A DNA stretch of 64,000 bases from Bacteroidales bacterium (lineage in GTDB: Bacteria; Bacteroidota; Bacteroidia; Bacteroidales; CAIWKO01), in contig DAOORA010000019.1 of the NCBI GenBank assembly GCA_035389045.1, positions 1-64,000 on the forward strand. Reading direction: 5' to 3'. This document shows, piece after piece, positions 3,051-56,155 of the stretch; the first letter of the stretch is position 1; each line of letters starts with the position of its first letter. Position numbers and translations under genes: made by a program. Below the pieces are notes generated by a model. It worked only from the letters and a program-made list of their open reading frames with translations, had not been told where the DNA came from and searched no databases.

Positions 3051-3082
3051 CAACGCTAAAAACATCTTCGTGTTTCTCCGTG

Positions 3083-3096
3083 TCCGCCGCGGCGGA
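3083..3096. repeat. REP-like perfect 14-bp palindrome TCCGCCGCGGCGGA
   Basis: Perfect palindrome. Variants at ~8827, ~8934 and 23462-23477. Confidence 0.7.
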
Positions 3097-3164
3097 TCCG
3101 TGCCTCCGTGGTTTTCCTTCCCCGTCACTATCCATAAAAAAGAATTTCACATCCCAAAGTTTTG

Positions 3165-3172
3165 TAATTTTG
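3165..3172 (+). promoter_or_regulatory. Bacteroidota sigma70 -7 element (TAnnTTTG) upstream of moeA
   Basis: TAATTTTG about 18 nt before ATG 3190. Confidence 0.6.
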
Positions 3173-3189
3173 TGCGAAACCCCGGAAAG

Positions 3190-4365
3190 ATGATACCTTT
3201 TGAGATTGCACTGGAAACTGTTTTATCGTGTAAATATGCTACCGGTACCGAAAAAGTACCTCTGACTTCTGCATTGGGCCGTGTACTTGCAGAAGATATC
3301 CGTTCGGATATTGACATGCCTCCTTTCAACAAATCGGCGGTTGATGGTTATGCTTGTTGCCGGCGGGATATTTTTAATGAACTTGAAATAATTGAGGTTA
3401 TTGCTGCCGGTAAAGCGCCGGAGAAGATAATTTCGGATAACCAGTGTGCCAAAATTATGACAGGAGCCATGATACCTCAGGGTGCCGACTGCGTGCTGAT
3501 GGTGGAACATACTGAAAAATCAGGCGAAAACAGTATAAAATTTATAAAGGCCGACACTGCGGCAAATATTGCCTATGCGGCTGAAGATGTGAAAAAAGGC
3601 AGCCTCGTTCTTGAAAAAGGAATCTTAATCAAACCTGAACACATAGCCATTCTGGCTGCTGTGGGTTGCTATGAGACTGAAGTTAGCCTTCAGCCGAAGG
3701 TCAGCATAATTTCCACCGGTGATGAATTAGTGGAACCTTACCAGATTCCGGGAGCTTCGCAGATACGCAACAGCAATTCATGGCAATTGTTGGCTCAGGC
3801 GCAACAGATGCATGTGAAAGTAAAATATGAAGGCATTGCCAGAGATGATGAAGAAATCACCCGCCATATGCTTGAGGATGCCTCTGAAACCAGTGATGTT
3901 GTCCTGCTTACCGGTGGCGTTTCCATGGGCGATTTCGATTTTGTTCCGGAAATGATGATGAAAACCGGCTTTGAGATATTGTTCCGCACCATTGCGATAC
4001 AACCCGGAAAACCTACTGTGTGTGGAAGAAAAGATAATAAAATCTGCTTTGGCCTGCCCGGGAACCCGGTGGCGTCCTTTGTCATTTTTGAATTGTTGGT
4101 CAAGCCCTTGCTTTATAAAATGATGGGCTGTGAATTTTCACCACGGTTACTCCGTATGCCATTTGCACATGAATATAAACGCAGAATATCGGAACGGCTT
4201 TCGGTAATTCCTGTTGTGATCAACAGCGATGGAACGGTTGAATCTGTAAGTTATCATGGTTCCGCACATATACATGCGCTTGCTTATGCAAACGGAATGG
4301 CTTTTATACCCATCGGCAAGGCTGTTGTTGAAAAAGGAGAGTTTATTGATGTTAGATTCATATAA
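3190..4365 (+). CDS. moeA: molybdopterin molybdotransferase MoeA
   Basis: Motifs GRVLAEDI, PPFNKSAVDGYA, IMTGAMIPQGADCV, STGDEL, TGGVSMGDFD, PGKP, GLPGNP. Start moved from 3070 to ATG 3190 because the extension translates repeat DNA. Confidence 0.93.
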   Translation: MIPFEIALETVLSCKYATGTEKVPLTSALGRVLAEDIRSDIDMPPFNKSAVDGYACCRRDIFNELEIIEVIAAGKAPEKIISDNQCAKIMTGAMIPQGADCVLMVEHTEKSGENSIKFIKADTAANIAYAAEDVKKGSLVLEKGILIKPEHIAILAAVGCYETEVSLQPKVSIISTGDELVEPYQIPGASQIRNSNSWQLLAQAQQMHVKVKYEGIARDDEEITRHMLEDASETSDVVLLTGGVSMGDFDFVPEMMMKTGFEILFRTIAIQPGKPTVCGRKDNKICFGLPGNPVASFVIFELLVKPLLYKMMGCEFSPRLLRMPFAHEYKRRISERLSVIPVVINSDGTVESVSYHGSAHIHALAYANGMAFIPIGKAVVEKGEFIDVRFI

Positions 4366-5149
4366 CCGTGAAATAAATTACCTTCGGGTTTCGGTAACCG
4401 ACCGTTGCAACCTGCGATGTATCTATTGCATGCCTGCAGAAGGTATTTCGTTGCAGGATCATAAGGATATATTGTCTTTTGAAGAAATCCTTCAAGTTAT
4501 TGAAATGGCGGTCTCCAAAGGAATCACCAAGGTACGTATTACCGGAGGGGAGCCATTGGTGCGCAGGGGAATTATTTCGCTTATTGAACAGATTTCCATA
4601 ATTCCGGGAATTATTGATTTATCCATGACTACCAACGGTATTCTGCTTGAAGAATATGCCGGACAGCTTGCCAAAGCCGGAATTCAGCGGATTAACATCA
4701 GTCTTGATACGGTGGATCCGCATAAATATGCTGAAATTACCCGTGGAGGTGATATTAAGAGGGTGGTTAGTGGCATTATCGCGGCAAAAAATGCAGGTTT
4801 AAACCCTATAAAAATTAACTGTGTGGTAAAATATTCTTCAAAGGAGCCGGATGCTTTGGGTGTGAAAGATTTTTGCGAAAGAAACGGTTTGCAGGTTCGT
4901 TTTATCCAGATGATGGATCTTCAAAAAGGGCATTTTTCCGTTGTGGACGGTGGTACAGGAGGTGATTGTTCCATTTGCAACCGTCTGCGGTTGACAGCCG
5001 ATGGAAAAATAAAACCCTGCCTGTTCAACGATTTAGAGTTTGATGTGAGGACAATAGGCGCTGAAAATGCTATTTTAGAAGCCATCAAAATCAAACCTGA
5101 ATGTGGGACATTAAGCAAAAATGGTCATTTTAATAATATCGGCGGATGA
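4349..5149 (+). CDS. moaA: GTP 3',8-cyclase MoaA (short, 266 aa)
   Basis: LDSYNREINYLRVSVTDRCNLRCIYC (CxxxCxxC), RITGGEPL, C-terminal CX2CX13C (CSICNRLRLTADGKIKPC), terminal IGG. Start at ATG 4349 overlaps the moeA end. Confidence 0.92.
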   Translation: MLDSYNREINYLRVSVTDRCNLRCIYCMPAEGISLQDHKDILSFEEILQVIEMAVSKGITKVRITGGEPLVRRGIISLIEQISIIPGIIDLSMTTNGILLEEYAGQLAKAGIQRINISLDTVDPHKYAEITRGGDIKRVVSGIIAAKNAGLNPIKINCVVKYSSKEPDALGVKDFCERNGLQVRFIQMMDLQKGHFSVVDGGTGGDCSICNRLRLTADGKIKPCLFNDLEFDVRTIGAENAILEAIKIKPECGTLSKNGHFNNIGG

Positions 5150-5248
5150 AAATAGTGGTATCTGTTTATTCCCTACGCTAAAAAACTTACCTTTATTTGG
5201 TTTTTTATTGTTATTTATGCCCTACGGGCAAACAGTGTTTCTTGAAAT

Positions 5249-5290
5249 ACATTTAACAAAAACGGGCACTTTAGTAATATCGGCGGATAA
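5249..5290 (+). pseudogene. displaced duplicate of moaA 3' end (TFNKNGHFSNIGG*)
   Basis: 10/13 aa identical to the moaA tail TLSKNGHFNNIGG* (5108-5149). Its TAA overlaps the NRAMP ATG (TAATG). Confidence 0.8.
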
Positions 5291-6546
5291 TGTGGAAAAA
5301 GCTTTTTGATAAAAAAAATCACAAACCACGTCTTGGCGGATTAGAAATCTTCAAATATATCGGCCCGGGCTTGTTGGTAACCGCCGGATTTATTGATCCG
5401 GGCAACTGGGCTACCAATATTGCCGCAGGCTCCGGATTTGGTTATTCCTTGTTATGGGTGGTTACTCTTTCCACAATTATGTTGATTATCCTTCAGCATA
5501 ATGTGGCGCATCTGGGTATTGCCACCGGCTTATGTCTTTCCGAAGCTACCTCAAAATATACCCCGGGCTGGGTGTCGCGTCCTTCGCTGGTGCTGGCTAT
5601 GCTGGCCTCAGTGAGCACCTCTCTGGCAGTGATATTGGGTGCGGCCATAGCTTTAAAAATGCTTTTTGGTATGCCGATACAGGCCGGAGCCATTATCAGC
5701 GCCGTATTTATCCTGATATTGTTGTTTTCCAACTCGTATAAAAAAATCGAAAAATGGATCATTGCTTTTGTCTCTGTTGTTGGACTTTCGTTTATTTATG
5801 AATTATACCTTATTGATATCGATTGGCAAAATGTTGCTCTAAACTTTGTTAAGCCTGAAATACCCGACCATTCTATTGTATTTATCATGGGGGTGCTGGG
5901 AGCTGTAATTATGCCTCACAATCTGTACCTGCATTCCGAGGTCATTCAAAGCCGGCAGTGGAACCTCCAGGACGATAAGGTTATCAGGAAACAACTGAAA
6001 TATGAGTTTGCGGACACCTTGCTCTCTATGATTATTGGCTGGGCTATCAATTGTGCAATTATTTTGCTTGCCGCATCCACTTTTTTTAAAAACGGAATAG
6101 CGGTCGATGAGCTTGAGCAGGCAAAAAGCATTATGGAGCCTTTGCTGGGCAGCAGTTCTGCTGTAATTTTTGCCATCGCCCTGTTGTTTTCGGGTATTGC
6201 TTCGGGCATCACTTCGGGAATGGCCGGCGGCACTATATTTTCCGGCATCTTTCAGGAGCCTTATGATAGCAAAGACAACCATTCCCGTTTGGGAGTGCTT
6301 ATTTCAATAGTGCTTGCCGTGATTATCATCATGTTTGTGGCCAATCCTTTTATGGCGCTGATCTACTCTCAGATGGCCCTAAGCATTGCCCTGCCGTTCA
6401 CTATTTTTATACAGATTTATCTTACCTCGTCCAAAAAAGTGATGGGGAAATATGCAAACGGATTATTACTGAAAGTGGTGTTGTTTGCCTTAGCGGCTGT
6501 TGTCTCAGGACTGAATGTGTATTTGTTGGTTGAAACCTTATTTTAG
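5290..6546 (+). CDS. mntH: NRAMP family divalent metal transporter (MntH-like)
   Basis: GPGLLVTAGFIDPGNWATN (DPGN motif), GAVIMPHNLYLHS (TM6 motif), about 11 hydrophobic segments. Confidence 0.88.
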   Translation: MWKKLFDKKNHKPRLGGLEIFKYIGPGLLVTAGFIDPGNWATNIAAGSGFGYSLLWVVTLSTIMLIILQHNVAHLGIATGLCLSEATSKYTPGWVSRPSLVLAMLASVSTSLAVILGAAIALKMLFGMPIQAGAIISAVFILILLFSNSYKKIEKWIIAFVSVVGLSFIYELYLIDIDWQNVALNFVKPEIPDHSIVFIMGVLGAVIMPHNLYLHSEVIQSRQWNLQDDKVIRKQLKYEFADTLLSMIIGWAINCAIILLAASTFFKNGIAVDELEQAKSIMEPLLGSSSAVIFAIALLFSGIASGITSGMAGGTIFSGIFQEPYDSKDNHSRLGVLISIVLAVIIIMFVANPFMALIYSQMALSIALPFTIFIQIYLTSSKKVMGKYANGLLLKVVLFALAAVVSGLNVYLLVETLF

Positions 6547-6600
6547 TGAAATAGTGAAGCCAGAGTTGCTAATTTATATTGCACTCCGGCTTGTTTAGGG

Positions 6601-6622
6601 TGCGAAGTCCGGAGACTTCGCA
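6601..6622. repeat. REP-like hairpin TGCGAAGTC-CGGA-GACTTCGCA
   Basis: Perfect 9-bp stem with 4-nt loop. A degenerate second copy lies near 6784-6805 (tgcgtagtccggagatttgact). Confidence 0.65.
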
Positions 6623-6628
6623 CAACTG

Positions 6629-6730
6629 GGAAAATATGCCAATGGTCAATTCCTGAAAATCTTGTTGTTTGCCTTGGCGGCTGTTGTTTCAGGATTGAAT
6701 ATTTATTTGCTAGTGGATACTATGCTTTAG
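6629..6730 (+). pseudogene. displaced duplicate of NRAMP gene 3' end (33 codons + stop)
   Basis: Translates GKYANGQFLKILLFALAAVVSGLNIYLLVDTML*, 25/33 aa identical to the gene tail at 6445-6546, no indels. Confidence 0.88.
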
Positions 6731-6929
6731 TATTGCACTGAAATCTGGTGCTTCAACATGATGTGTATCAGATTGTTTGATGTTGCGTAGTCCGGAGATT
6801 TGACTCAGCCGGGGTTAATACAAATATCGTAATTCTTTTTCGTCCTTCGCTTAAATTCTTTACACCCTTCGAGGTTAAAAAGAGATGGTAATATTAAAAA
6901 TGCTAATTTTGAATATCCAAATTCAAATT

Positions 6930-7376
6930 ATGCCAAAACTTTCCCATACCGATTCCACCGGCAGGGCCAACATGGTGGATGTAGGTCACAAACCCCAGCA
7001 AACCCGTATTGCCAAGGCAAGCGGAATGATTATTTTACATAAGGAAACCCTTAGGCTGATAAAAGACAACGAACTGAAAAAAGGCGATGTCCTCACCGTG
7101 GCAGAAGTTGCCGGCATTCAGGCCGCCAAACAGAATGCCATGCTTATACCACTCTGTCATCCTTTGCTATTGACCAAAATTGATGTAAAATGCACACTGA
7201 AAAAAAATGGCGTTATGGCCGAAAGTCTGGTGAAATGCATCGGGCAGACCGGTGTGGAAATGGAAGCCCTTACAGCCGTGAGTGTGGCTTTGCTGACGGT
7301 GTATGATATGTGCAAAGCCGTGGATAAGACCATGGTAATTTCGGAAGTGCGACTTGTGTGCAAAGAGAAAATTTAA
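6930..7376 (+). CDS. moaC: cyclic pyranopterin monophosphate synthase MoaC
   Basis: LSHTDSTGRANMVDVGHK, KKGDVL, LIPLCHP, TGVEMEALT, YDMCKAVD. TAATTTTG at ~6904 supports start 6930. Confidence 0.95.
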   Translation: MPKLSHTDSTGRANMVDVGHKPQQTRIAKASGMIILHKETLRLIKDNELKKGDVLTVAEVAGIQAAKQNAMLIPLCHPLLLTKIDVKCTLKKNGVMAESLVKCIGQTGVEMEALTAVSVALLTVYDMCKAVDKTMVISEVRLVCKEKI

Positions 7377-7406
7377 TTATGTACAAACAGAATTTAAAAT
7401 AAGAAT

Positions 7407-8339
7407 GTGATGAATATTAAGATAGAATCGGTCAATATTTCTGAAAAAACAGGAGTGATAAAACATCCGGTTGAGAAAATAGTAATTAATAAAACCGGTA
7501 TTGAAAATGATGCCCATTCCGGCGACTGGCACAGGCAGGTGAGTTTGTTGTCGACCGAAAGTATTGCCCAATCAGAGCAAAAAGCAAAGCGAAAGATTAA
7601 CTATGGTGAGTTTGCCGAAAACCTGACCATCTCGGGCATGAACCTGATAGATACCGCTCCTCTCGACAGGTTTATGATTAATGATGTTGAACTGGAGGTT
7701 ACACAGATAGGAAAGAAATGTCACGGTAGTACGTGTGCAATCTTTAATGAAGTGGGCGAGTGCGTGATGCCTAAAGAAGGCATATTTTGTCGGGTGCTGC
7801 GCGGCGGAACCATCATGCCTGGAGACGAAGGCATTTATTACCCCCGTATATTCAGGGTTTGTGTAATCACCCTTAGCGACCGGGCCAGTCAGGGAGTTTA
7901 TGAAGATTTGAGCGGAAAACATATAGCTGATCTTTGTGAACATTTTTTTACTTCCAAAAAACGTAAATATGAAGTTCATAAAACCCTCATCCCTGACAAT
8001 GTTGAACAACTCAGGCAGCTGATCACAGATTCGGTGAATACATACGATATTGTCATTACCACAGGGGGTACGGGTATCGGCCCGAGAGATTTTACGCCCG
8101 ATGTTGTAAAACCCATGCTGGAAAAAGAAATTCCGGGCATTATGGAAATGATTCGGATAAAATATGGACAACAAAAACCAAATGCCTTGGTTAGCAGGGC
8201 TGTGGCAGGAGTTATCGGCAATACACTGGTGTTTACACTGCCCGGCAGCGTTAAAGCCGTGGAAGAATACATGACAGAAATATTCACCATGCTGGAGCAC
8301 CTGATTTATATGCTGCATAGTTTGGATTTTCATGGATAG
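7407..8339 (+). CDS. MOSC domain - MogA/MoaB molybdopterin adenylyltransferase fusion
   Basis: N-half SVNISEKTG, NDAHSG, RQVSLLS, GEFAENL, TQIGKKCH, CVMPKEGIF (MOSC). C-half ITLSDRASQGVYEDLSG, TTGGTGIGPRDFTPD, LPGSVKAV (MogA). Confidence 0.88.
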   Translation: MMNIKIESVNISEKTGVIKHPVEKIVINKTGIENDAHSGDWHRQVSLLSTESIAQSEQKAKRKINYGEFAENLTISGMNLIDTAPLDRFMINDVELEVTQIGKKCHGSTCAIFNEVGECVMPKEGIFCRVLRGGTIMPGDEGIYYPRIFRVCVITLSDRASQGVYEDLSGKHIADLCEHFFTSKKRKYEVHKTLIPDNVEQLRQLITDSVNTYDIVITTGGTGIGPRDFTPDVVKPMLEKEIPGIMEMIRIKYGQQKPNALVSRAVAGVIGNTLVFTLPGSVKAVEEYMTEIFTMLEHLIYMLHSLDFHG

Positions 8340-47789: not shown

Positions 47790-48198
47790 ATTTTTTTCTT
47801 TTGTAAAATTACTGATTTTGACGGTCAAAAATGGCATTGTTCATAAATTTTAAATCTATTGATATCATGTAAGTTGTAAGTTAAAAACAGCACACATATG
47901 TTGATGACAGTTTTTATGATTAAATACTGAACAATTTGAAAGAACCTATGTGTCATGTTCAAATAATAAATTATAGTTATCTCATGGTCAGTTTATTAAA
48001 TGTTCATCTACGGCTTATATATTAGACTTATAAACAATGTGTAATTATGATTTATAAAATATTAGGCTGTACTGGGGTTTCATTCATCCGCTCATTGATA
48101 ATAAAACCTTCATTATAGCTGAATTGTGCTGAAAATCAAAGTTTTTAAACTTGTTTAAGGTAATAAAAAATTCCTTCTTGTTGTAATAATATTTTGTC

Positions 48199-48206
48199 TA
48201 TTTTTG
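48199..48206 (+). promoter_or_regulatory. -7 element upstream of efp
   Basis: TATTTTTG about 28 nt before ATG 48234. Confidence 0.6.
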
Positions 48207-48233
48207 CACGAAATTTTGAAAAAAGGAATGCTT

Positions 48234-48800
48234 ATGGCAACTACGGCAGATATAAGAAATGGTTTATGCATAGAGTTTAACAACGATTTATTTGTTGTTG
48301 TTGAATTTCAGCATGTTAAACCAGGAAAAGGCGGGGCTTTCGTCAGGACCAAACTCAAAAGTCTTACAACAGGAAAAGTAATCAGCAATACCTTCAACTC
48401 GGGTACAAAGATTGATGTTACCCGTGTGGAAAGACGTCCTTACCAGTTTCTGTATAAGGATGATAGTGGGTATAACTTTATGCATGTCGAAACTTTCGAA
48501 CAGGTATTGATCATGGAAGAAATGATTGATGCGCATGATTTATTGAAAGAGGGACAAATGGTGGAGATCATGTTCCATGCCGATACCGAACGTCCGCTAT
48601 CATGCGAACTCCCTGCCTTTGTAGAACTCGAAGTTGTTTACACGGAACCCGGCATAAGAGGTGATACAGCAACCAATGCACTGAAACATGCGACCATGGA
48701 AACAGGTGCAATTGTAGATGTGCCGTTATTTATTAATATCGGCGAAAAAATCAGAATTGACACAAGAAATCATTCTTATTACGAACGTGTTAAATCATAA
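48234..48800 (+). CDS. efp: elongation factor P
   Basis: [48 protein letters not shown]. Confidence 0.97.
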
Positions 48801-48826
48801 GCCGGTATTCACAGATAACTTTAATT

Positions 48827-49747
48827 ATGAAATTTCAAGATACTTACACATTAAAAGATTTTGCTGAGTTTTTAAACGCAAAGTATATTGGTTGCGATGA
48901 CCATAAAATTACCGGTATTAACGAAGTTCATATGGTCGAGGAAGGCGACATTACCTTTGTCGATTTTTATAAGTATTATGATAAGGCATTAAACTCAAAA
49001 GCCTCTACCGTCATAATAAATAAAAAGGTAACACCACCGGATGGCAAAGCGCTAATAATTTCTGAGGATCCTTTCCGGGACTTCAACAAAATCGCCACCC
49101 GTTTCCGGAAGTTTGAACCCTGTGCGAATCCTATCAGCGATTCGGCGGAAATAGGGGAAGGCACAATTTTGCAGCCAGGCGTGTTTATCGGGAACCATGT
49201 TAAAATTGGTAAAAACTGCATTATTCATTCCAACGTCAGCATTTACGATTATTCCGTTATTGGCGACAATGTCATCATCCAGTCGAATGCGGTTATCGGA
49301 GGAGATGCCTATTATTTCAAACGTCGCCCCGATCATTACGATAAAATGGAATCATGCGGAAGGACCATCATACATGACGACGTAGAGATAGGCGCTCTGT
49401 GTGCTGTGGACAAGGGTGTATCCGGAGATACTATCGTTGGCCAGGGCACAAAGATCGACAACCATGTTCAGATCGGACATGATACACATATTGGTAAAAA
49501 TTGTCTCATTGGTGCACATTCAGCCATAGCAGGAGTTACTGTCATTGAAGATGATGTTTGTATATGGGCACAGGTTATGATAAATAAAGACATAACAATT
49601 GGTAAAGGAGCTGTGCTTCTTGCAACGTCCGCCGTAGACAAATCTATGGAAGGCGGTAAGGTTTATTTTGGATCCCCGGCCATTGAAGCACGAAAAAAAT
49701 GGCGTGAGATAATAGCTTTGAAAAAATTAGCTGAAAATTATAAGTGA
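48827..49747 (+). CDS. LpxD-like UDP-3-O-acyl-glucosamine N-acyltransferase (hexapeptide repeats)
   Basis: LpxD N-terminal domain, left-handed beta-helix repeats, GTKIDNHVQIGHD; follows efp as is common in Bacteroidota. Confidence 0.82.
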   Translation: MKFQDTYTLKDFAEFLNAKYIGCDDHKITGINEVHMVEEGDITFVDFYKYYDKALNSKASTVIINKKVTPPDGKALIISEDPFRDFNKIATRFRKFEPCANPISDSAEIGEGTILQPGVFIGNHVKIGKNCIIHSNVSIYDYSVIGDNVIIQSNAVIGGDAYYFKRRPDHYDKMESCGRTIIHDDVEIGALCAVDKGVSGDTIVGQGTKIDNHVQIGHDTHIGKNCLIGAHSAIAGVTVIEDDVCIWAQVMINKDITIGKGAVLLATSAVDKSMEGGKVYFGSPAIEARKKWREIIALKKLAENYK

Positions 49748-49804
49748 TTTTCAGCAAAAACTACCGTTTATTTTTCGTATTGTCGTTCAGAAACATTGTA
49801 AAGC

Positions 49805-50185
49805 ATGGGGGATAAAACATTTGATAAATATTCCAATATCCGCATAAATTACAAATTGTGGATGTCTTCTCAAACCGGTGATGCTATCATTGACGATGAT
49901 AAATGGAAAATGCTCATTTCTATACAGGAACTTGGTTCACTGATGGCAGCTGCCAATAATGAAAAGATAAGTTACCGCAAAGCCTGGGGTGATATTCGTA
50001 AAATGGAAGCTATACTTGGGTTCCGGCTGGTCGAAAAACACCGCGGGGGCAAGTCTGGTGGTATTACCATACTTACAAATGAGGGCGTCAGGCTTATTAA
50101 CTCGTATGTGAGATTTCGCGCTGAATTTCAGCAAAATGTTGATGAAACCATAAAAAAATTTAAAAAAGAGCTGAAACAAGTTTAG
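49805..50185 (+). CDS. ModE N-terminal-type winged-HTH regulator (no TOBE/molybdate-binding domain)
   Basis: KLWM, ISIQELGSLMAAA...ISYRKAWGDIRKME...LVEKHRGGKSGGITILTNEG; only 126 aa. Confidence 0.82.
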   Translation: MGDKTFDKYSNIRINYKLWMSSQTGDAIIDDDKWKMLISIQELGSLMAAANNEKISYRKAWGDIRKMEAILGFRLVEKHRGGKSGGITILTNEGVRLINSYVRFRAEFQQNVDETIKKFKKELKQV

Positions 50186-50192
50186 TTTCCCA

Positions 50193-50930
50193 ATGAGGAT
50201 TTTTGTGGCCATCGACGATACAGATAATTCCGAAAGCAAGGGTACGGGTTTCAGGGCCAGAGAACTGGCAGTCCTTATTCAAAAAAAAAATCTGGGATTG
50301 CTTTATGGAGTAACACGCCACCAGCTTTTTGTACATGAGAAGATTCCATATACATCTCATAACAGTTCAGCATGTATAGTTTTGATTGCTGATGAAAAAA
50401 ACCTTCGGAGCATTATTGATGTTTCAGCACAATATCTTATTGAAAATGCTGCCGATGGTTCTGATGCCGGATTATGTGTCTGTTCCGAAAAAAATATCAC
50501 GGCGGAACTGATCTCCTATGCAAAAAAAGCCAAAACAGAAGTCTTGACTATGGATACAGCCATAGAATTGGCTCAGAAACATCAGATTTTTCTGGAGGGT
50601 TTTACGGGAACCAGACAGGGCGTTATAGGATCATTAGCGGCGATCGGACTGCATGCGGAAGGCAACGACGGCCGTTTTCTGCAGGTAAGGGGTATGAGAG
50701 AACTTTTTGGTGTACACACGGTTAAATACATCCTTGAATACACCGGCGTGGAAAAAATCATGTCCACAGAAAACAAAATATTGTTTAATTTCGAAAAAAT
50801 TTTTCTTACCGAATGGTGGCGGCCTGTGCTTAATAATAAACAGGCAGTACTATATGTTGAAACAAAAAATGCATGTAATTATGAATACAGGGTTATCTCA
50901 AAAGAGCATATCAAAAACATATCCGACTAA
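50193..50930 (+). CDS. TiaS N-terminal-domain-like protein (DDTD motif; no OB-fold or Zn ribbon)
   Basis: MRIFVAIDDTDNSESKGTG, RHQL..HEKIPYTSHNSSAC, GSDAGLC, GTRQGVIGSLAAIG; 245 aa. Confidence 0.72.
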   Translation: MRIFVAIDDTDNSESKGTGFRARELAVLIQKKNLGLLYGVTRHQLFVHEKIPYTSHNSSACIVLIADEKNLRSIIDVSAQYLIENAADGSDAGLCVCSEKNITAELISYAKKAKTEVLTMDTAIELAQKHQIFLEGFTGTRQGVIGSLAAIGLHAEGNDGRFLQVRGMRELFGVHTVKYILEYTGVEKIMSTENKILFNFEKIFLTEWWRPVLNNKQAVLYVETKNACNYEYRVISKEHIKNISD

Positions 50931-51447
50931 GGCTTTATTAACCTTACTTGAGGTGTTGCTCCTGATAAGTATAGGAGCCATCGGGGTTCTGATTCACGCT
51001 AAATTCCGTTTTCCACTGAGATTGCCCGGGCACTGGGGATTGGTTTACATGGCGTTGATTTTTTCCGGGCGTTTGTTTTCAAAAAAACCTTATGCATCAA
51101 GCCTGTCAAGCCTGGGCGCTGTTGCTATGTTATTACTGCCCCTTGGATTTAAAGACCCTTTTATGCCTGTCCTGTATATCTTTCCGGGGTTTATTACGGA
51201 CGTTTTCTATAATATCTTTAAAAACGGAAAAAAACAGATAATTCTTATTGCCCTTATTTCCGGAGTGGCTTATATGTCTATACCTTTGTCGCGTTTATTT
51301 TTAACTTTGTTTACAGGAGTCATATATGGATCTTTCAGTACCGGATATATTTATCCTTTCATTATGCATTTTTTGTTCGGTGCATGTGGCGGCCTGACCG
51401 GTCTTGGGATATACTCCGTCATTAGGAAAATTCTTAAACGATTATAA
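50881..51447 (+). CDS. putative ECF-type S-component-like membrane protein
   Basis: About 188 aa, about 6 hydrophobic helices, PLRLPGHWGLVYMA after TM1, HFLFGACGGLTG in the last TM. Start at 50881 assumed; 50707 would overlap the upstream gene too far. Confidence 0.55.
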   Translation: MNTGLSQKSISKTYPTKALLTLLEVLLLISIGAIGVLIHAKFRFPLRLPGHWGLVYMALIFSGRLFSKKPYASSLSSLGAVAMLLLPLGFKDPFMPVLYIFPGFITDVFYNIFKNGKKQIILIALISGVAYMSIPLSRLFLTLFTGVIYGSFSTGYIYPFIMHFLFGACGGLTGLGIYSVIRKILKRL

Positions 51448-51450
51448 TTA

Positions 51451-52341
51451 ATGATAAACCAATCGTTTTTTTTCAAATTAGAGATACTCGTTTTCATTGT
51501 TGTTTTTTTCTCTTCATGTACCAAAAAAGATACAGACCCGCCTGTTATTACATTTGATGCTTCTGGCGGGCTGGTTTTCAAAGACACGGTATTTCCGGCC
51601 GGAACAAACTTCAAGGTGAGCCTTATTGCCGAAATGGGAGGGTCAAACATTACCAATTTTGTCATCAAAAATTATCACGACGGACAGGTCACCGATTATT
51701 TTGATACAGGCGTGAATAGCGAAACTATTAATATTACAAAGATACTGACCAAAAATGTTTTTGATACAGAAAAGTGGACTTTTATGGTCATCGATAAAAA
51801 TGGTAAAAATGCGTCTGTTTCATTTAATGTATATCGGGATACAAGCGCTGGATATCAATTGGTGAAAGTTTTTCCGGGCGTGATTCTTGGTGCACAGAAA
51901 AACCCTGCAAAAGGAAGCTTTATGAGCCTGAAAAGTGGCAACACATGGTTTCAGCCTGATGCATTCAACATCCAGGATTCAATAGAATTGCTGTATTATT
52001 TTGACTCAACCGGCGATGCCAATACTATTGCTTCTGCCGGTGCTAACATTGCCACGTTTATTTACCCTGGAAGTACAAGCCCTTTATACTGGTCAATCCG
52101 GCATGAAACCCGCTTTTATAAGACTGCATATTCAAATGTTGATTTTAATAATGTACAAAACGACAGCCTGTTGCTTGTTGCTTATGATGAAATCAATGGT
52201 AAGCGTAAGGCCAAAAATCTTGCCGCCGGCGATGTGTATTCATTTAAGACAGCTCATGCACGGTACGGTATGTTTTTAGTGGAACAGGTTCTTGGCGCCG
52301 ACTCCGGAATGGTGCAATTCACCATAAAAATCCAGAAATGA
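51451..52341 (+). CDS. outer-membrane lipoprotein, likely surface exposed
   Basis: Lipobox FFSS-C followed by TKKDTD (charged, export-signal-like), beta-rich. Stop overlaps the receptor start (ATGA). Confidence 0.72.
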   Translation: MINQSFFFKLEILVFIVVFFSSCTKKDTDPPVITFDASGGLVFKDTVFPAGTNFKVSLIAEMGGSNITNFVIKNYHDGQVTDYFDTGVNSETINITKILTKNVFDTEKWTFMVIDKNGKNASVSFNVYRDTSAGYQLVKVFPGVILGAQKNPAKGSFMSLKSGNTWFQPDAFNIQDSIELLYYFDSTGDANTIASAGANIATFIYPGSTSPLYWSIRHETRFYKTAYSNVDFNNVQNDSLLLVAYDEINGKRKAKNLAAGDVYSFKTAHARYGMFLVEQVLGADSGMVQFTIKIQK

Positions 52342-54635
52342 TGAAAAAAATTATTGTTTTTAGCATCATTGTGTTGTGGATTATTCAGGTATCTGCCCAG
52401 GGTAAAATAAGCGGTCTTGTAATGGATGAACAGACCGGAAATATACTCCCGGTTGCTACCGTAAAAATCCTTGAGTTAAATATGGTGACTACCTCAGATA
52501 AAGAAGGCGCTTATGTATTTAAATATATCCAACCAGGGAAATATCATCTCGCCTTCACCTATGTGGGCTATAAAAACGATACCGTTCAGGTCACCATGGG
52601 GAAAAAAAGTGACCGATATATTATTACAAAACTTACTAAGGCGGTTATCGATATCTCTGAGGTGACTGTCATTGCATCAAGAACCGAAAAAGGGTTCCGG
52701 GTTCCTGCAAGTATGGATGTGATCACCAAAAAACAGTTGCAGGAGTTGCCTGTTGTTTCTGTGGACGATGCATTAGTTTTAGTTTCCGGATTGAATGCTT
52801 CAAGAAATTATGGGATTTATAATAAAACAGGTGATGTAACCTTGCGCGGGCTTAACCGCAACATTTACAGCCTGATACTGCTCGATGGCGTGCCTTACAG
52901 CCTTTTCGACGGCAGCGCCAACCTGTGGAATAAACTGTATACCGAAAAAATTGATGACATCCAAATCGTAAAAGGGGCAAATTCGGCCTTGTATGGTAGC
53001 AATGCCATGTCAGGTGTAATTTGCATAAATACATACAAACCCGAAAAATCATTTGAAGCCAGGGCTAAGGTTTTTTTCGGGACTTATAATACGCAGGGCG
53101 GGAATCTTGTTGTTGGTGGCAACAGATCCAAAAATGACAGAGGGTTTTACTGGAGTGTCAATGGTTTTTACAGGAAAAGCGGAGGCTATATTATGGCGCC
53201 TGATTCGCTCAGAACACCTTATGATGTGAAAACCTACGTGATGGAATACAACGCATTGGCAAAAACCGGTTATCAGTTTGGTAAAGGTCATAACATCGAA
53301 GTTGAATATGAGTACTCATCCGATAAACGCGGTACCGGTAGTAAATTTTTCGAAGAACAGGGAAGTTATAACCATTACAGAACTCACTTTACCAGATTAT
53401 CATACAATCGTGTGCATGACAACCACGAGATTCATGCCAATGTTTTTTTTAAAAAGGAAGGGTATATAAAACAAAATGAATCCATCAAGAAAAACACCGG
53501 ATTGTACACATTTTACAATACGGACACCGATACACATGACGAAGGGCTTTGGTTCAGTTATACCACCAGGACAATAAAAAATAATGTGCTTACTGTTGGA
53601 ACAGATGTTAAAAGCGGTGCTGTTTATTCAAATGATATTTATCATACTTCTGTTGATACCATTGAAAATAATGGGAAAATGGATTTTTTCGGCGTTTTTA
53701 TTCAGGACCAGTTATCCCTGCTGAAAGACAAATTTGTGATTTTGGCCGCACTGCGTGCCGATCTGGTACACTTCTACGGAGGGATTTTCCATATATATTC
53801 ACCAACGCTTGCTACATCTTTTTTGTATGATTACCAGGGAGATTTTAAAGCAAAATCGTGGTTTGCATTGAGTCCGAAAGCAGGGTTTAAATATATTTTT
53901 AACGAAAACTTTAATATCTATGCGTTGTATTCCTGGGGTTTCAGGCCGCCACAGATCAACGACCTTTCGCGAACCGGAGATGTAAACAAAGGTTTCAAAC
54001 TTGCCAATCCCGGCCTGAAACCTGAACGTATTCAGAGTGTGGAACTGGGTGCAGGATTACGTCCCGCAAAATGGTTGCTGATTCAGCCCATAGTGTTTTA
54101 TTCAAAAGGTATAGATTTTCAGTATTTTGTTGCAACTGGCGATTCGGTATATACTTCGGGGGTGAATATGAAACCTGTCATAAAAAGACAAAATGTCGGA
54201 AGAGTTAATATCGCAGGATTTGAACTTAAAACCAGTATCAGTTTTACAAAAAACATGAAACTAACAACTTGTTATTCCTATAATTATTCGGTTATCGGAA
54301 AATACCTGCCGGGCACGGTTGTTACAACCGATCTCACGGGCAGGGACCTGATCGAAGTTCCCAGAAACCTTTTCAGTGGCATTTATACCTGGAATAACAG
54401 AATTATAACGGCAACTCTTACAGCTAAGTTCATTGATAAAGAATGGGTCGACGATGAAAATACTATCAGACTTGACTCGTATTGGACTTTCGATGCCAGG
54501 ATACAGCGTATGTTTTATAACAAAATTAATTTTGCGCTGACCTGTCAGAATATTTTAAACAAACGCTTTGTGGACAGCAAGGGCTACCTTTCGCCAGGAA
54601 GATACTTTTTGTTTGAATTGTCTTTCAACTGGTAA
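52338..54635 (+). CDS. TonB-dependent receptor (non-SusC; BtuB/heme-receptor-like architecture)
   Basis: Signal peptide, CarboxypepD_reg-like N-domain (GKISGLVMDEQTG..YVGY), plug (EVTVIASR, LRGL, LLDGVP, IVKGANSALYGSNAMSGVI), ANPGLKPE, C-terminal PGRYFLFELSFNW. Confidence 0.9.
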   Translation: MMKKIIVFSIIVLWIIQVSAQGKISGLVMDEQTGNILPVATVKILELNMVTTSDKEGAYVFKYIQPGKYHLAFTYVGYKNDTVQVTMGKKSDRYIITKLTKAVIDISEVTVIASRTEKGFRVPASMDVITKKQLQELPVVSVDDALVLVSGLNASRNYGIYNKTGDVTLRGLNRNIYSLILLDGVPYSLFDGSANLWNKLYTEKIDDIQIVKGANSALYGSNAMSGVICINTYKPEKSFEARAKVFFGTYNTQGGNLVVGGNRSKNDRGFYWSVNGFYRKSGGYIMAPDSLRTPYDVKTYVMEYNALAKTGYQFGKGHNIEVEYEYSSDKRGTGSKFFEEQGSYNHYRTHFTRLSYNRVHDNHEIHANVFFKKEGYIKQNESIKKNTGLYTFYNTDTDTHDEGLWFSYTTRTIKNNVLTVGTDVKSGAVYSNDIYHTSVDTIENNGKMDFFGVFIQDQLSLLKDKFVILAALRADLVHFYGGIFHIYSPTLATSFLYDYQGDFKAKSWFALSPKAGFKYIFNENFNIYALYSWGFRPPQINDLSRTGDVNKGFKLANPGLKPERIQSVELGAGLRPAKWLLIQPIVFYSKGIDFQYFVATGDSVYTSGVNMKPVIKRQNVGRVNIAGFELKTSISFTKNMKLTTCYSYNYSVIGKYLPGTVVTTDLTGRDLIEVPRNLFSGIYTWNNRIITATLTAKFIDKEWVDDENTIRLDSYWTFDARIQRMFYNKINFALTCQNILNKRFVDSKGYLSPGRYFLFELSFNW

Positions 54636-54763: not shown

Positions 54764-56155
54764 ATGAATTTCGATATTATTATAATAGGTTCAGGACCGG
54801 GTGGTTATGTGGCTGGCATAAGAGCGTCGCAATTAGGTTTTTCCGTTGCTATGGTTGAACAGGCCGAGGTAGGCGGTATATGTCTAAATTGGGGCTGCAT
54901 TCCTACCAAAGCGCTTCTGAAATCTGCCCAGGTTTATAATTATGCAAAACATGCCGCTGAATATGGAATTACGCTTACAGGCGATGTTGCTTTTGATTTT
55001 CAGACTATCGTCAGACGCAGCCGTGATGTTGCGGAAAATATGAGCAAGGGTGTTCAGTTTTTGTTCAGAAAAAATAAAATCGAAGTAATTAAAGGCCATG
55101 GAAAGATTTTGCCGGGCGGAAAAGTGGAAGTTACCGGCGGTGAAGGCCAAATATCGGTTTATGAGGCAAGACATATTATTCTTGCTACAGGATCACGTGC
55201 ACGGGAACTTCCCAATCTGAAAATCGACGGCAAAAAAATTATTGGATACCGCCAGGCAATGACCTTGGAAAAACAACCACAATCATTGGTGGTAATAGGT
55301 TCCGGGGCTATCGGTTCGGAGTTTGCACACTTTTATAATACACTTGGCACCAAAGTGACACTGGTAGAGATGTTGCCCAATGTAGTTCCTGTCGAAGATG
55401 AGGATGTGTCAAAACAACTGGAACGTTCTTTCAAAAAAAGCGGAATGAAAGTTTATACTGCTTCTGTCGTTGAAAGTGTTGATACCAGTGGCGAAATTTG
55501 TAAGGTTTCGATAAAAACCCCAAAAAATGTTGAGGTGGTCGAAGCGGAAGTTGTTCTTTCTGCTGTTGGCGTAAGCACCAACCTTGAAAATTTAGGATTG
55601 GAAGAAACCGGCATACTGACCGAAAGAGGAAAAGTCCTGGTGGATGAGTACTACCGGACCAACCAGGAAGGGTATTATGCCATCGGCGATATTGTAAAGG
55701 GGCCTGCCCTGGCTCATGTGGCTTCGCGCGAAGGTATTGTCTGTGTTGAAAAAATTGCCGGGAAAGACGTGGCGCCTGTGGATTATAGTAATATTCCGGG
55801 CTGTACATATACACATCCGGAGGTTGCCTCAGTGGGATATACCGAAAAAGCAGCCATCGAAGCAGGGTTGACCATAAAAACCGGAAAGTTCCCTTTTACT
55901 GCCAGTGGAAAAGCCAATTCTTCGGGGTTCAGGGACGGTTTTATCAAAGTGATTTTTGATGCTGATTCCGGCAAATGGCTCGGAGCTCATTTTATCGGCG
56001 AGAATGTTACCGAAATGATAGCCGAAGTAGTAGTGGCGCGTAATATAGGCGCTACGGCTCACGATATTCTCACGGCAGTGCATCCGCACCCCACCATGTC
56101 CGAAGCCGTTATGGAAGCCGTGGCAGCGGCATACGGTGAGGTGATTCATATATAA
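54764..56155 (+). CDS. lpdA: dihydrolipoyl dehydrogenase
   Basis: IGSGPGGYVA, GGICLNWGCIPTKALL, GSGAIGSE, HPHPTMSE. Confidence 0.96.
   Translation: MNFDIIIIGSGPGGYVAGIRASQLGFSVAMVEQAEVGGICLNWGCIPTKALLKSAQVYNYAKHAAEYGITLTGDVAFDFQTIVRRSRDVAENMSKGVQFLFRKNKIEVIKGHGKILPGGKVEVTGGEGQISVYEARHIILATGSRARELPNLKIDGKKIIGYRQAMTLEKQPQSLVVIGSGAIGSEFAHFYNTLGTKVTLVEMLPNVVPVEDEDVSKQLERSFKKSGMKVYTASVVESVDTSGEICKVSIKTPKNVEVVEAEVVLSAVGVSTNLENLGLEETGILTERGKVLVDEYYRTNQEGYYAIGDIVKGPALAHVASREGIVCVEKIAGKDVAPVDYSNIPGCTYTHPEVASVGYTEKAAIEAGLTIKTGKFPFTASGKANSSGFRDGFIKVIFDADSGKWLGAHFIGENVTEMIAEVVVARNIGATAHDILTAVHPHPTMSEAVMEAVAAAYGEVIHI

Follow-up and report, generated by a model that had tools for sequence, protein, structure and literature searches.

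The DNA analysed here is a 64,000-nt stretch (the window) of the genome of a Bacteroidales bacterium (G000; 4.46 Mb, 96.3% complete), and this report concerns a cluster of five co-oriented genes distinguished on its plus strand from the list of open reading frames (ORFs) of the window. The cluster (49805-54635) is composed of genes encoding (i) a ModE-type regulator (REG), (ii) a TiaS-like kinase protein (TCKD), (iii) a membrane protein with a fold resembling the S-components of energy-coupling factor (ECF) transporters (MEM), (iv) a lipoprotein (LIPO) and (v) a TonB-dependent receptor (TBDR) (Table 1). The encoded proteins, the genes found beside their homologues and a candidate operator all point to a role in the acquisition of tungsten.

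Table 1. Features of the window and a paralogous array of the same genome (positions refer to the window unless a contig is named)
Feature	Position	Strand	Description
REG	49805..50185	+	126 aa, ModE-N-type winged-helix regulator, no Mop/TOBE sensing domain
TCKD	50193..50930	+	245 aa, TiaS-type kinase domain and family-specific C-terminal beta-rich domain
MEM	50881..51447	+	188 aa, multi-pass membrane protein, ECF S-component-like fold
LIPO	51451..52341	+	296 aa, lipoprotein, N-terminal Ig-like sandwich and C-terminal domain
TBDR	52338..54635	+	765 aa, TonB-dependent receptor, N-terminal CarboxypepD_reg domain
LpxD-like gene	48827-49747		upstream flank
lpdA	54764-56155		downstream flank; TIGR01350, 550 bits
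moeA, moaA, (Nramp), moaC, MOSC-MogA	3070..8339	+	context, outside the operon (Pfam)
Nramp-family metal transporter gene	5290-6546		inserted between moaA and moaC
Paralogous tungstate uptake array	C1:144918-153483 (L091, L095)	-	at the contig end

The genes are closely packed: REG and TCKD are separated by 7 nt, TCKD and MEM overlap by 50 nt (50881-50930), MEM and LIPO are separated by 3 nt, and LIPO and TBDR share an ATGA overlap (52338-52341). The ORF of MEM is open from position 50707 (50707-51447), and the ATG at 50881 is the start that fits the conserved N-terminus of its homologues (MNGxxSQK). This arrangement recurs, far above chance, across the 80 loci that were fetched for comparison. 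The initial annotation, made from the sequence alone, had described five co-oriented genes with this very spacing and had assigned to them a ModE-type helix-turn-helix (HTH) protein, a TiaS-like kinase, an S-component, a lipoprotein and a TonB-dependent receptor; the coordinates bear out the former, and the domain and structure searches show that the latter assignments were right.

TCKD is a two-domain protein, with a TiaS-type kinase domain (approximately residues 1-160) followed by a beta-rich C-terminal domain (approximately residues 165-245). It scores 26.3 bits against the Pfam family TiaS_TCKD (PF22641), just under the cut-off of 27. In its predicted structure (pLDDT 96.8; 82 homologues) residues 1-159 superimpose on the kinase domain of TiaS (3amt_A) with a VIA Z of 23.2 and a root-mean-square deviation of 1.7 A over 154 residues (27% identity), and Foldseek gives an E value of 1e-11 for the match to TiaS. 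In a profile alignment of the two proteins, the DDTD motif, Thr18 (which in TiaS is autophosphorylated), the central motifs with their Arg and Asn, and the GxGxIGALAAxG stretch are all in register. Among 82 sequences, T10, R42, N57 and G146 are invariant, while D8, D9, D11, T18, H43, the GxGxIGALAAxG stretch and G157/D159/G160/R161 are at least 90% conserved. The TiaS-type activator domain proposed in the initial annotation thus stands, in its active-site motifs as well as in its fold; an ATP-dependent modification of a cargo by TCKD would be pure conjecture. Models built for whole proteins match only in part: the TiaS equivalog NF040849 scores 43.2 bits (cut-off 600) and is covered at model positions 1-157 of 422 only, and TIGR03280 (methanogenesis marker 11) scores 52.6 bits (cut-off 255.8) in its TCKD-bearing part. 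Two structure searches with the full model, both dominated by residues 1-159, assigned no fold to the C-terminal approximately 80 residues.

MEM has no Pfam or NCBIfam match. Its Atlas model shows a TM score of 0.78 to a cluster in which 31% of the members carry PF09819, 0.62 to a QueT cluster and 0.60 to an MptD-like cluster. Forty aligned sequences share the invariant residues G32, P49, G50, G53, D107, P135, G167 and G170, and the motif LPGHHG. Since a search of the 96.3%-complete genome at E values up to 0.01 detected no EcfT/CbiQ (PF02361), the ECF transmembrane partner, MEM is best described as a stand-alone S-component-like protein, in agreement with the solitary S-component that had been predicted.

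LIPO carries a signal peptide with an invariant Cys23, and its model (pLDDT 94.6) has a two-domain fold. The closest solved fold is that of 4ei0, an uncharacterised DUF4466 lipoprotein of Bacteroidetes (Foldseek E value 9e-12, TM 0.37-0.40, 11% identity); the Pfam scan of LIPO gave no PF14725 match. The LIPO family is unnamed and confined to Bacteroidota. TBDR is identified as a TonB-dependent receptor by its Plug (PF07715, 72.9 bits), barrel (PF00593, 113.3 bits) and CarbopepD_reg_2 domains (Pfam). No NCBIfam model reaches its cut-off: the top rows are TonB-hemin (170 bits, cut-off 316.85) and a siderophore subfamily (133 bits, cut-off 223.5), the BtuB model TIGR01779 (TonB-B12) scores 86.5 bits (cut-off 599.7), and the SusC/RagA signature TIGR04057 scores 27.2 bits (cut-off 46.2). 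According to Pfam and NCBIfam, none of the five genes encodes a binding protein, permease or ABC ATPase of a tungstate importer of the WtpABC or TupABC type.

REG matches the ModE N-domain model TIGR00637 with 78.2 bits, below the cut-off of 98.5, and HTH_1 (PF00126) with 30 bits, above the cut-off of 26.6. With only 126 aa it has no room for a Mop half, and it lacks the C-terminal di-Mop/TOBE molybdate-binding half of ModE; the TOBE domain (PF03459) was not found anywhere in the genome. REG is a single-copy gene and encodes the sole ModE-type protein found in the genome by tblastn. Many related loci contain, upstream of REG and after a TTTG promoter-like element, the palindrome CGATATG-N10-CATATCG, which presumably resembles the ModE box of E. 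coli. With up to two mismatches allowed, this box occurs 53 times in 846 kb of loci and 19 times in the 4.46-Mb genome, i.e., it is approximately 15-fold denser in the loci. Its positions there are fixed: between MEM and LIPO (23 copies), upstream of REG (10), upstream of TCKD in loci without REG (5), upstream of the tungsten enzyme gene AOR (5), upstream of aldehyde dehydrogenase genes (2), upstream of other LIPO copies (2) and elsewhere (6). Three of the 19 copies in this genome adjoin tungsten-related genes. The sole perfect box (contig C26:14309-14332; L101) precedes, at a distance of 34 nt, a pair of NAD-type aldehyde dehydrogenase genes next to AOR1, and boxes with two mismatches lie approximately 100 nt upstream of AOR2 and upstream of a LIPO paralogue, the latter with a matching position in genome G407 (see below). 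Aldehyde dehydrogenase genes are found near the cluster in 10 loci, in 2 of which they are preceded by boxes. To judge from their placement, the boxes at AOR and aldehyde dehydrogenase genes look like a tungsten-sparing switch between tungsten (W)-dependent and W-independent aldehyde oxidation. REG, as the only ModE-type protein found in the genome, would be the natural candidate for binding them.

A scan of species genomes for TCKD gave at least 585 confirmed stretches, of which the best 80 loci were analysed. All are parts of metagenome-assembled genomes (MAGs) labelled as Bacteroidota, Chloroflexota, Proteobacteria, Acidobacteria or Planctomycetota, and the carrier organisms come from sludge and digester metagenomes. 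The loci were grouped by label (L007 was placed in Bacteroidota by its synteny), and synteny was counted only in loci with enough sequence on the relevant side. In the Bacteroidota-labelled group (54 loci), MEM is adjacent to TCKD in 52/52, LIPO lies downstream in 50/51, TBDR lies downstream on the same strand in 48/48, and REG lies upstream in 29/52. Proteobacterial loci (11) have MEM adjacent (10/10) and a receptor within 6.5 kb (7/8), with no LIPO downstream (0/8) and no REG upstream (0/11). Among the 11 Chloroflexota-type loci, MEM is adjacent in 6/10, and neither LIPO nor TBDR was found (0/10 each); a BLAST search with REG found no upstream homologue (0/10), its place being taken by a distinct HTH+PBP_like type of regulator. 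The four remaining loci have MEM adjacent in 3/4, LIPO in 1/2, TBDR in 1/2 and REG in 0/4. Overall, TCKD and MEM are neighbours in 71/76 loci, and the counts by group identify this pair as the cross-phylum core, to which the receptor is joined in diderm lineages and LIPO is added in Bacteroidota. The gene set is thus a syntenic unit in other genomes, as the initial annotation had supposed. The TCKD family as a whole has 2937 word-index matches among proteins of similar length, nearly all designated "hypothetical", with 839 representatives at 50% identity. The TCKD gene occurs in 0/400 other sampled Bacteroidota genomes, which makes that sample unusable for within-sample association.

The genes found beside the cluster connect it with tungsten. 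For Bacteroidota, all neighbours were clustered and one example per cluster was annotated. A typical array consists of a leftward ThiF gene followed by rightward AOR, PpnP, REG, TCKD, MEM, LIPO, TBDR, T9SS (a type IX secretion system-sorted protein), MoeA and radical S-adenosylmethionine (SAM) genes. A WtpA-like gene is inserted between REG and TCKD in 8 loci (301 bits against TIGR03730 in the example scanned, cut-off 242.75). Flanking clusters of AOR, MoeA and ThiF/MoeB-like genes are each represented in 7 loci and that of radical-SAM MoaA-like genes in 6, the MoeA and MoaA-like genes being located directly downstream of the cluster. A gene for a protein with a T9SS tail follows the receptor in 27 loci (L071:10311-11162 and 26 others); this protein is homologous to the repeat of a 468-aa protein encoded on contig C1 of the present genome (39% identity, E value 2e-61) and could serve the system as a binding protein that is secreted or displayed at the surface. 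The cluster of the window has no gene of this kind. The PpnP-family gene (PF06865) lies between AOR and REG in 9 loci (e.g., L075:5128-5409).

In Chloroflexota (4 loci) the array is composed of genes for an ArsR-type HTH+PBP_like regulator, a lipoprotein of approximately 160 aa, TCKD, MEM, a TupA-like substrate-binding protein, and a TupB-like permease and/or an ABC ATPase; the TupA-like protein, permease and ATPase are all present in L041, L058 and L060, and no permease was called in L080. In model PRK14498, the PBP_like domain found in these regulators is fused to archaeal MoeA. The only match of the TupA-like proteins is NF041772 (approximately 240 bits), and in one Thermoflexales locus a TupA-like protein, encoded beside TCKD, is fused to a sulfite-oxidase-type domain. 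The small lipoprotein, of no known family, is encoded directly upstream of TCKD in 8 Chloroflexota/Planctomycetota-type loci (L041:5492-6004, L058:5428-5919 and 6 more). A profile comparison with LIPO aligned only the signal peptides and gave no sign of relatedness. SAM riboswitches on the opposite strand near two Chloroflexota loci (L041:1285-1385 and L060:2225-2406) are probably unrelated to the cluster.

The present genome carries a second, diverged lipoprotein/receptor module. The array on contig C1 (Table 1) encodes, in this order, WtpA (TIGR03730, 297 bits), a LIPO paralogue, a T9SS-tail protein (468 aa with an internal repeat; C1:149957-151363), a TBDR paralogue, a 357-aa conserved protein of no family, a ModB/WtpB-like permease and an ABC ATPase. 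The LIPO paralogue, encoded beside WtpA, shares 29% identity with LIPO (E value 6e-39), the receptor is the closest TBDR paralogue of the genome (30-31% identity, E value 1e-104), and the permease is its only ModB-family match. This module therefore pairs a lipoprotein and a receptor with a classical WtpABC importer. In G407, a complete MAG chromosome, both modules are joined in a single co-oriented array: REG, WtpA, TCKD, MEM, LIPO, TBDR, LIPO2, T9SS, TBDR2, the 357-aa protein (66% identical to that of C1), WtpB-like and WtpC-like. This array indicates that the five genes of the window belong, as one module, to a larger island for tungstate uptake.

The distribution of AOR is consistent with this context. 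The AOR N-domain (PF02730) was searched for in the carrier genomes of 50 of the 80 loci and was present in 43 (31/31 Bacteroidota-labelled and 12/19 others), against 4/400 sampled Bacteroidota genomes other than this one, a contrast between carriers that are MAGs from anoxic habitats and a sample of high-quality genomes. TCKD is missing from all four AOR-bearing genomes of the sample, which shows that AOR can do without the module. The molybdenum/tungsten (Mo/W) link suggested in the initial annotation has gained ground, with WtpA/TupA, AOR, MoeA and the ModE-like operator pointing to tungsten. The present genome encodes two AORs and a formate dehydrogenase alpha subunit (FdhA); the gene of the latter (C4:39044-45634; L094) contains one in-frame TGA, likely a selenocysteine codon, and is followed by genes for NuoE/F-like partner subunits, FocA and a MobA fusion.

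The window also contains a molybdenum cofactor (Moco) cluster (Table 1), noted earlier as lacking moaE. MoaE (PF02391) is indeed missing genome-wide at E values up to 10, and it was not found in 29/31 Bacteroidota-labelled carriers, two of them complete chromosomes. It is also missing in 3/4 AOR-bearing Bacteroidota without TCKD and present in 17/19 non-Bacteroidota carriers; the loss therefore characterises these Bacteroidota and not the module, and on the same counts a replacement of MoaE by TCKD was rejected. One ThiS-like ORF was observed on contig C16 of this genome.

Within positions 48100-50300, metatranscriptome contigs identical to the window join efp/lpxD to REG and the start of TCKD. 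Contigs from two libraries bridge lpxD, REG and the TCKD start (49424-50268 and 48764-50025) and further patches fall on LIPO and TBDR; such contigs are no proof of a single transcript, and DNA contamination of RNA libraries is possible.

We propose that the cluster makes up half of an island by which anaerobic Bacteroidota acquire tungsten (possibly W/Mo), a reading to which, as a whole, we assign a probability of roughly 0.55. That the cluster serves the supply of tungsten or molybdenum in a general sense is probable, while the specific assignment of MEM and TCKD to an inner-membrane import step is tentative. In the proposed route, TBDR and the surface lipoprotein LIPO would capture tungsten from a scarce supply, most likely as tungstate, and TonB energy would drive its passage across the outer membrane. 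MEM would then carry it across the inner membrane, with TCKD as an obligate cytoplasmic partner, possibly in a physical complex with MEM, which would use ATP to drive, gate or trap the cargo. In related genomes, REG would repress the cluster, AOR and the tungsten-independent aldehyde dehydrogenases through the CGATATG-N10-CATATCG operator. A two-membrane uptake route is suggested by five observations: (i) in two phyla the TCKD-MEM pair is accompanied by the receptor; (ii) the LIPO/TBDR module is paired either with WtpBC or with TCKD-MEM, as if these were alternative inner-membrane partners; (iii) the modelled fold of MEM resembles that of a transporter, and no ECF module goes with it; (iv) the TCKD and MEM genes overlap and are inseparable; and (v) TCKD retains its catalytic residues. 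Tungstate or a close tungsten species is the likelier cargo because the partners of the module, WtpA and TupA, are oxyanion-binding proteins.

Several points weigh against this proposal, in which the ligand and the transport role are predicted from sequences and structure models. The chemistry of TiaS is directed at an organic carbonyl. Known S-components take up organic micronutrients and Ni/Co, and we know of none for an oxyanion. A ModB/WtpB-like permease or another member of the ModB family is encoded in the present genome and in each of five carrier genomes that were checked (G417 gives only weak matches, best E value 1.7e-11), and the Chloroflexota operons have TupABC next to TCKD-MEM; an inner-membrane route for tungstate would thus already be present, and MEM may act otherwise. 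The TupA-like proteins fall short of the equivalog cut-off of NF041772 (400 bits). AOR is missing in 7 of the 50 carrier genomes, mostly of Proteobacteria, and in the AOR comparison the two sets differ in habitat and genome type and relatives are not independent. The cluster of the window has no ModE-like box at up to three mismatches, so that tungsten control of this copy is at most putative, and the metatranscriptome contigs give a weak hint that it may be transcribed by read-through from the housekeeping genes upstream.

The same architecture could serve another cargo, such as molybdate, thiotungstate, thiomolybdate or a metal chelate (metallophore), unlike that of the WtpA-linked paralogous module. 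The two LIPO/TBDR modules, both present in this genome and adjoining in G407, have diverged to 29-31% identity, which suggests two specificities; sulfidic metal species are to be expected in sludge and digester habitats; and the proteobacterial carriers are mostly without AOR, one of them having a molybdopterin oxidoreductase nearby. W and Mo species are indistinguishable at the sequence level, but the linkage to AOR in all Bacteroidota carriers and the WtpA/TupA-type neighbours favour tungsten, and we consider a different cargo fairly unlikely. A role in signalling, in which MEM would sense tungsten at the membrane and TCKD would modify or bind REG, is also unlikely. It would account for a REG that resembles only the DNA-binding half of ModE in a genome without a detected TOBE/Mop domain, for the position of REG just upstream of TCKD here and in over half of the Bacteroidota-labelled loci, and for the conservation of Thr18 in a relative of a protein-and-RNA kinase. 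The pair, however, persists without an adjacent REG in 23/52 Bacteroidota-labelled and 11/11 proteobacterial loci, the Chloroflexota regulator has a PBP_like sensor domain of its own, and the tight linkage of the pair to the receptor in two phyla better fits a transport chain.

Salvage of a pterin (molybdopterin, the W/Mo cofactor or cyclic pyranopterin monophosphate), captured by TBDR and LIPO, imported by MEM and trapped by TCKD through phosphorylation or adenylation, is close to the Mo/W-pterin cofactor or precursor favoured by the initial annotation. The S-component-like fold of MEM without an ECF module would suit such a cargo, and the only studied relative of the kinase domain, to our knowledge, acts on an organic substrate; a faint similarity of this domain to pterin pyrophosphokinases (Z 6-7, a range that the tool calls common) is a lead only. 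MoaE is lacking here, beside moaA, moaC, moeA and a mogA-like gene, and in nearly all Bacteroidota carriers, but, as its loss is equally common without TCKD, this gives no specific support. The carriers moreover retain moaA and moaC, which would be needless if molybdopterin were salvaged, the genes next to the pair encode proteins that bind oxyanions, and no Moco riboswitch was found in the window, where an Rfam scan gave zero matches, or in 25 related loci. We therefore regard pterin salvage as improbable. An ordinary haem, siderophore or B12 uptake locus lying near Mo/W genes by chance is very improbable: the best NCBIfam rows of the receptor do name haemin and siderophores, but all scores are under their cut-offs, the neighbourhoods of the related loci show no recurrent genes for haem or siderophores, and the conserved operator is ModE-like and common to the cluster and AOR. 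The corrinoid once considered as a cargo fares no better, with no riboswitch in the window and no cobalamin riboswitch in the 25 related loci.

Compared with described systems, the tungsten acquisition proposed here shares its metal context with the WtpABC, TupABC and ModABC importers, whose WtpA/TupA-like proteins and ModB-family permeases occur in arrays or operons with TCKD-MEM. The cluster of the window differs from them in lacking the components of a binding-protein-dependent ABC system, in having an S-component-like membrane protein, and in a presumed ATP-using partner with the TiaS kinase fold instead of the ABC ATPase fold. B12 capture by BtuB/BtuG and BtuM likewise combines a receptor and a surface lipoprotein with a solitary S-component-like protein without an ECF module, whereas the present cluster has a lipoprotein with DUF4466 as its nearest fold, no cobalamin riboswitch, a receptor far from the TonB-B12 cut-off and a tungsten instead of a corrinoid context. 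TCKD shares its N-terminal kinase domain, with the DDTD motif, Thr18 and GxGxIGALAAxG, with TiaS (the archaeal tRNA(Ile2) agmatidine synthetase), but it is bacterial, is shorter (245 vs. approximately 420 aa), lacks the tRNA-binding domains and is paired with a membrane protein; methanogenesis marker 11 has the TCKD domain in common with it. REG resembles the N-terminal DNA-binding domain of the ModE of Proteobacteria, and in related loci an AT-rich palindromic operator likewise precedes Mo/W genes; REG, by contrast, has no Mop/TOBE half, and its apparent regulon takes in a TonB-dependent receptor, AOR and aldehyde dehydrogenases. PnuC-NadR kinase trapping offers an analogy, with a small membrane permease and a neighbouring cytoplasmic ATP-using enzyme, but neither protein is related in sequence or fold to MEM or TCKD, and the cargo here would be inorganic.

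The capture of nutrients by a receptor with a lipoprotein and regulation of the ModE type are already known; the cargo, the TCKD-MEM pair and the make-up of the regulon are new. In the literature searched (subscription journals lay outside it) we could find neither the TCKD family nor methanogenesis marker 11 described, nor a TonB-dependent receptor for tungsten or molybdenum, nor the operator, and the accessible parts of PMC13197769 and PMC11734730 do not mention such components. The TCKD-MEM pair stands a fair chance of being a transporter of a new kind. The boldest version of the proposal is doubtful; in it, a TiaS-type kinase domain, in place of an ABC or ECF module, would energise an S-component-like permease or make its transport unidirectional, and the pair would be a new inner-membrane uptake device that forms, with LIPO and TBDR, the first TonB-dependent tungsten uptake pathway.

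Tungsten enzymes, such as AOR and W-formate dehydrogenases, matter for anaerobic digestion, gut metabolism and CO2 reduction. For the uptake of tungsten, only the ABC systems Tup, Wtp and Mod have been described, and we found no account of how tungsten crosses the outer membrane. The cluster supplies candidate parts for this step, which could also aid the heterologous production of tungsten enzymes, together with a cross-phylum two-gene core containing a kinase fold so far known only in archaeal tRNA modification, and a candidate operator that ties together uptake, a tungsten enzyme and tungsten-independent backup dehydrogenases. If the boldest version is correct, tungsten would be to bacteria of several phyla what iron and B12 are, a nutrient that merits active capture at the outer membrane, and methanogenesis marker 11, through the common TCKD domain, may also serve W/Mo supply.

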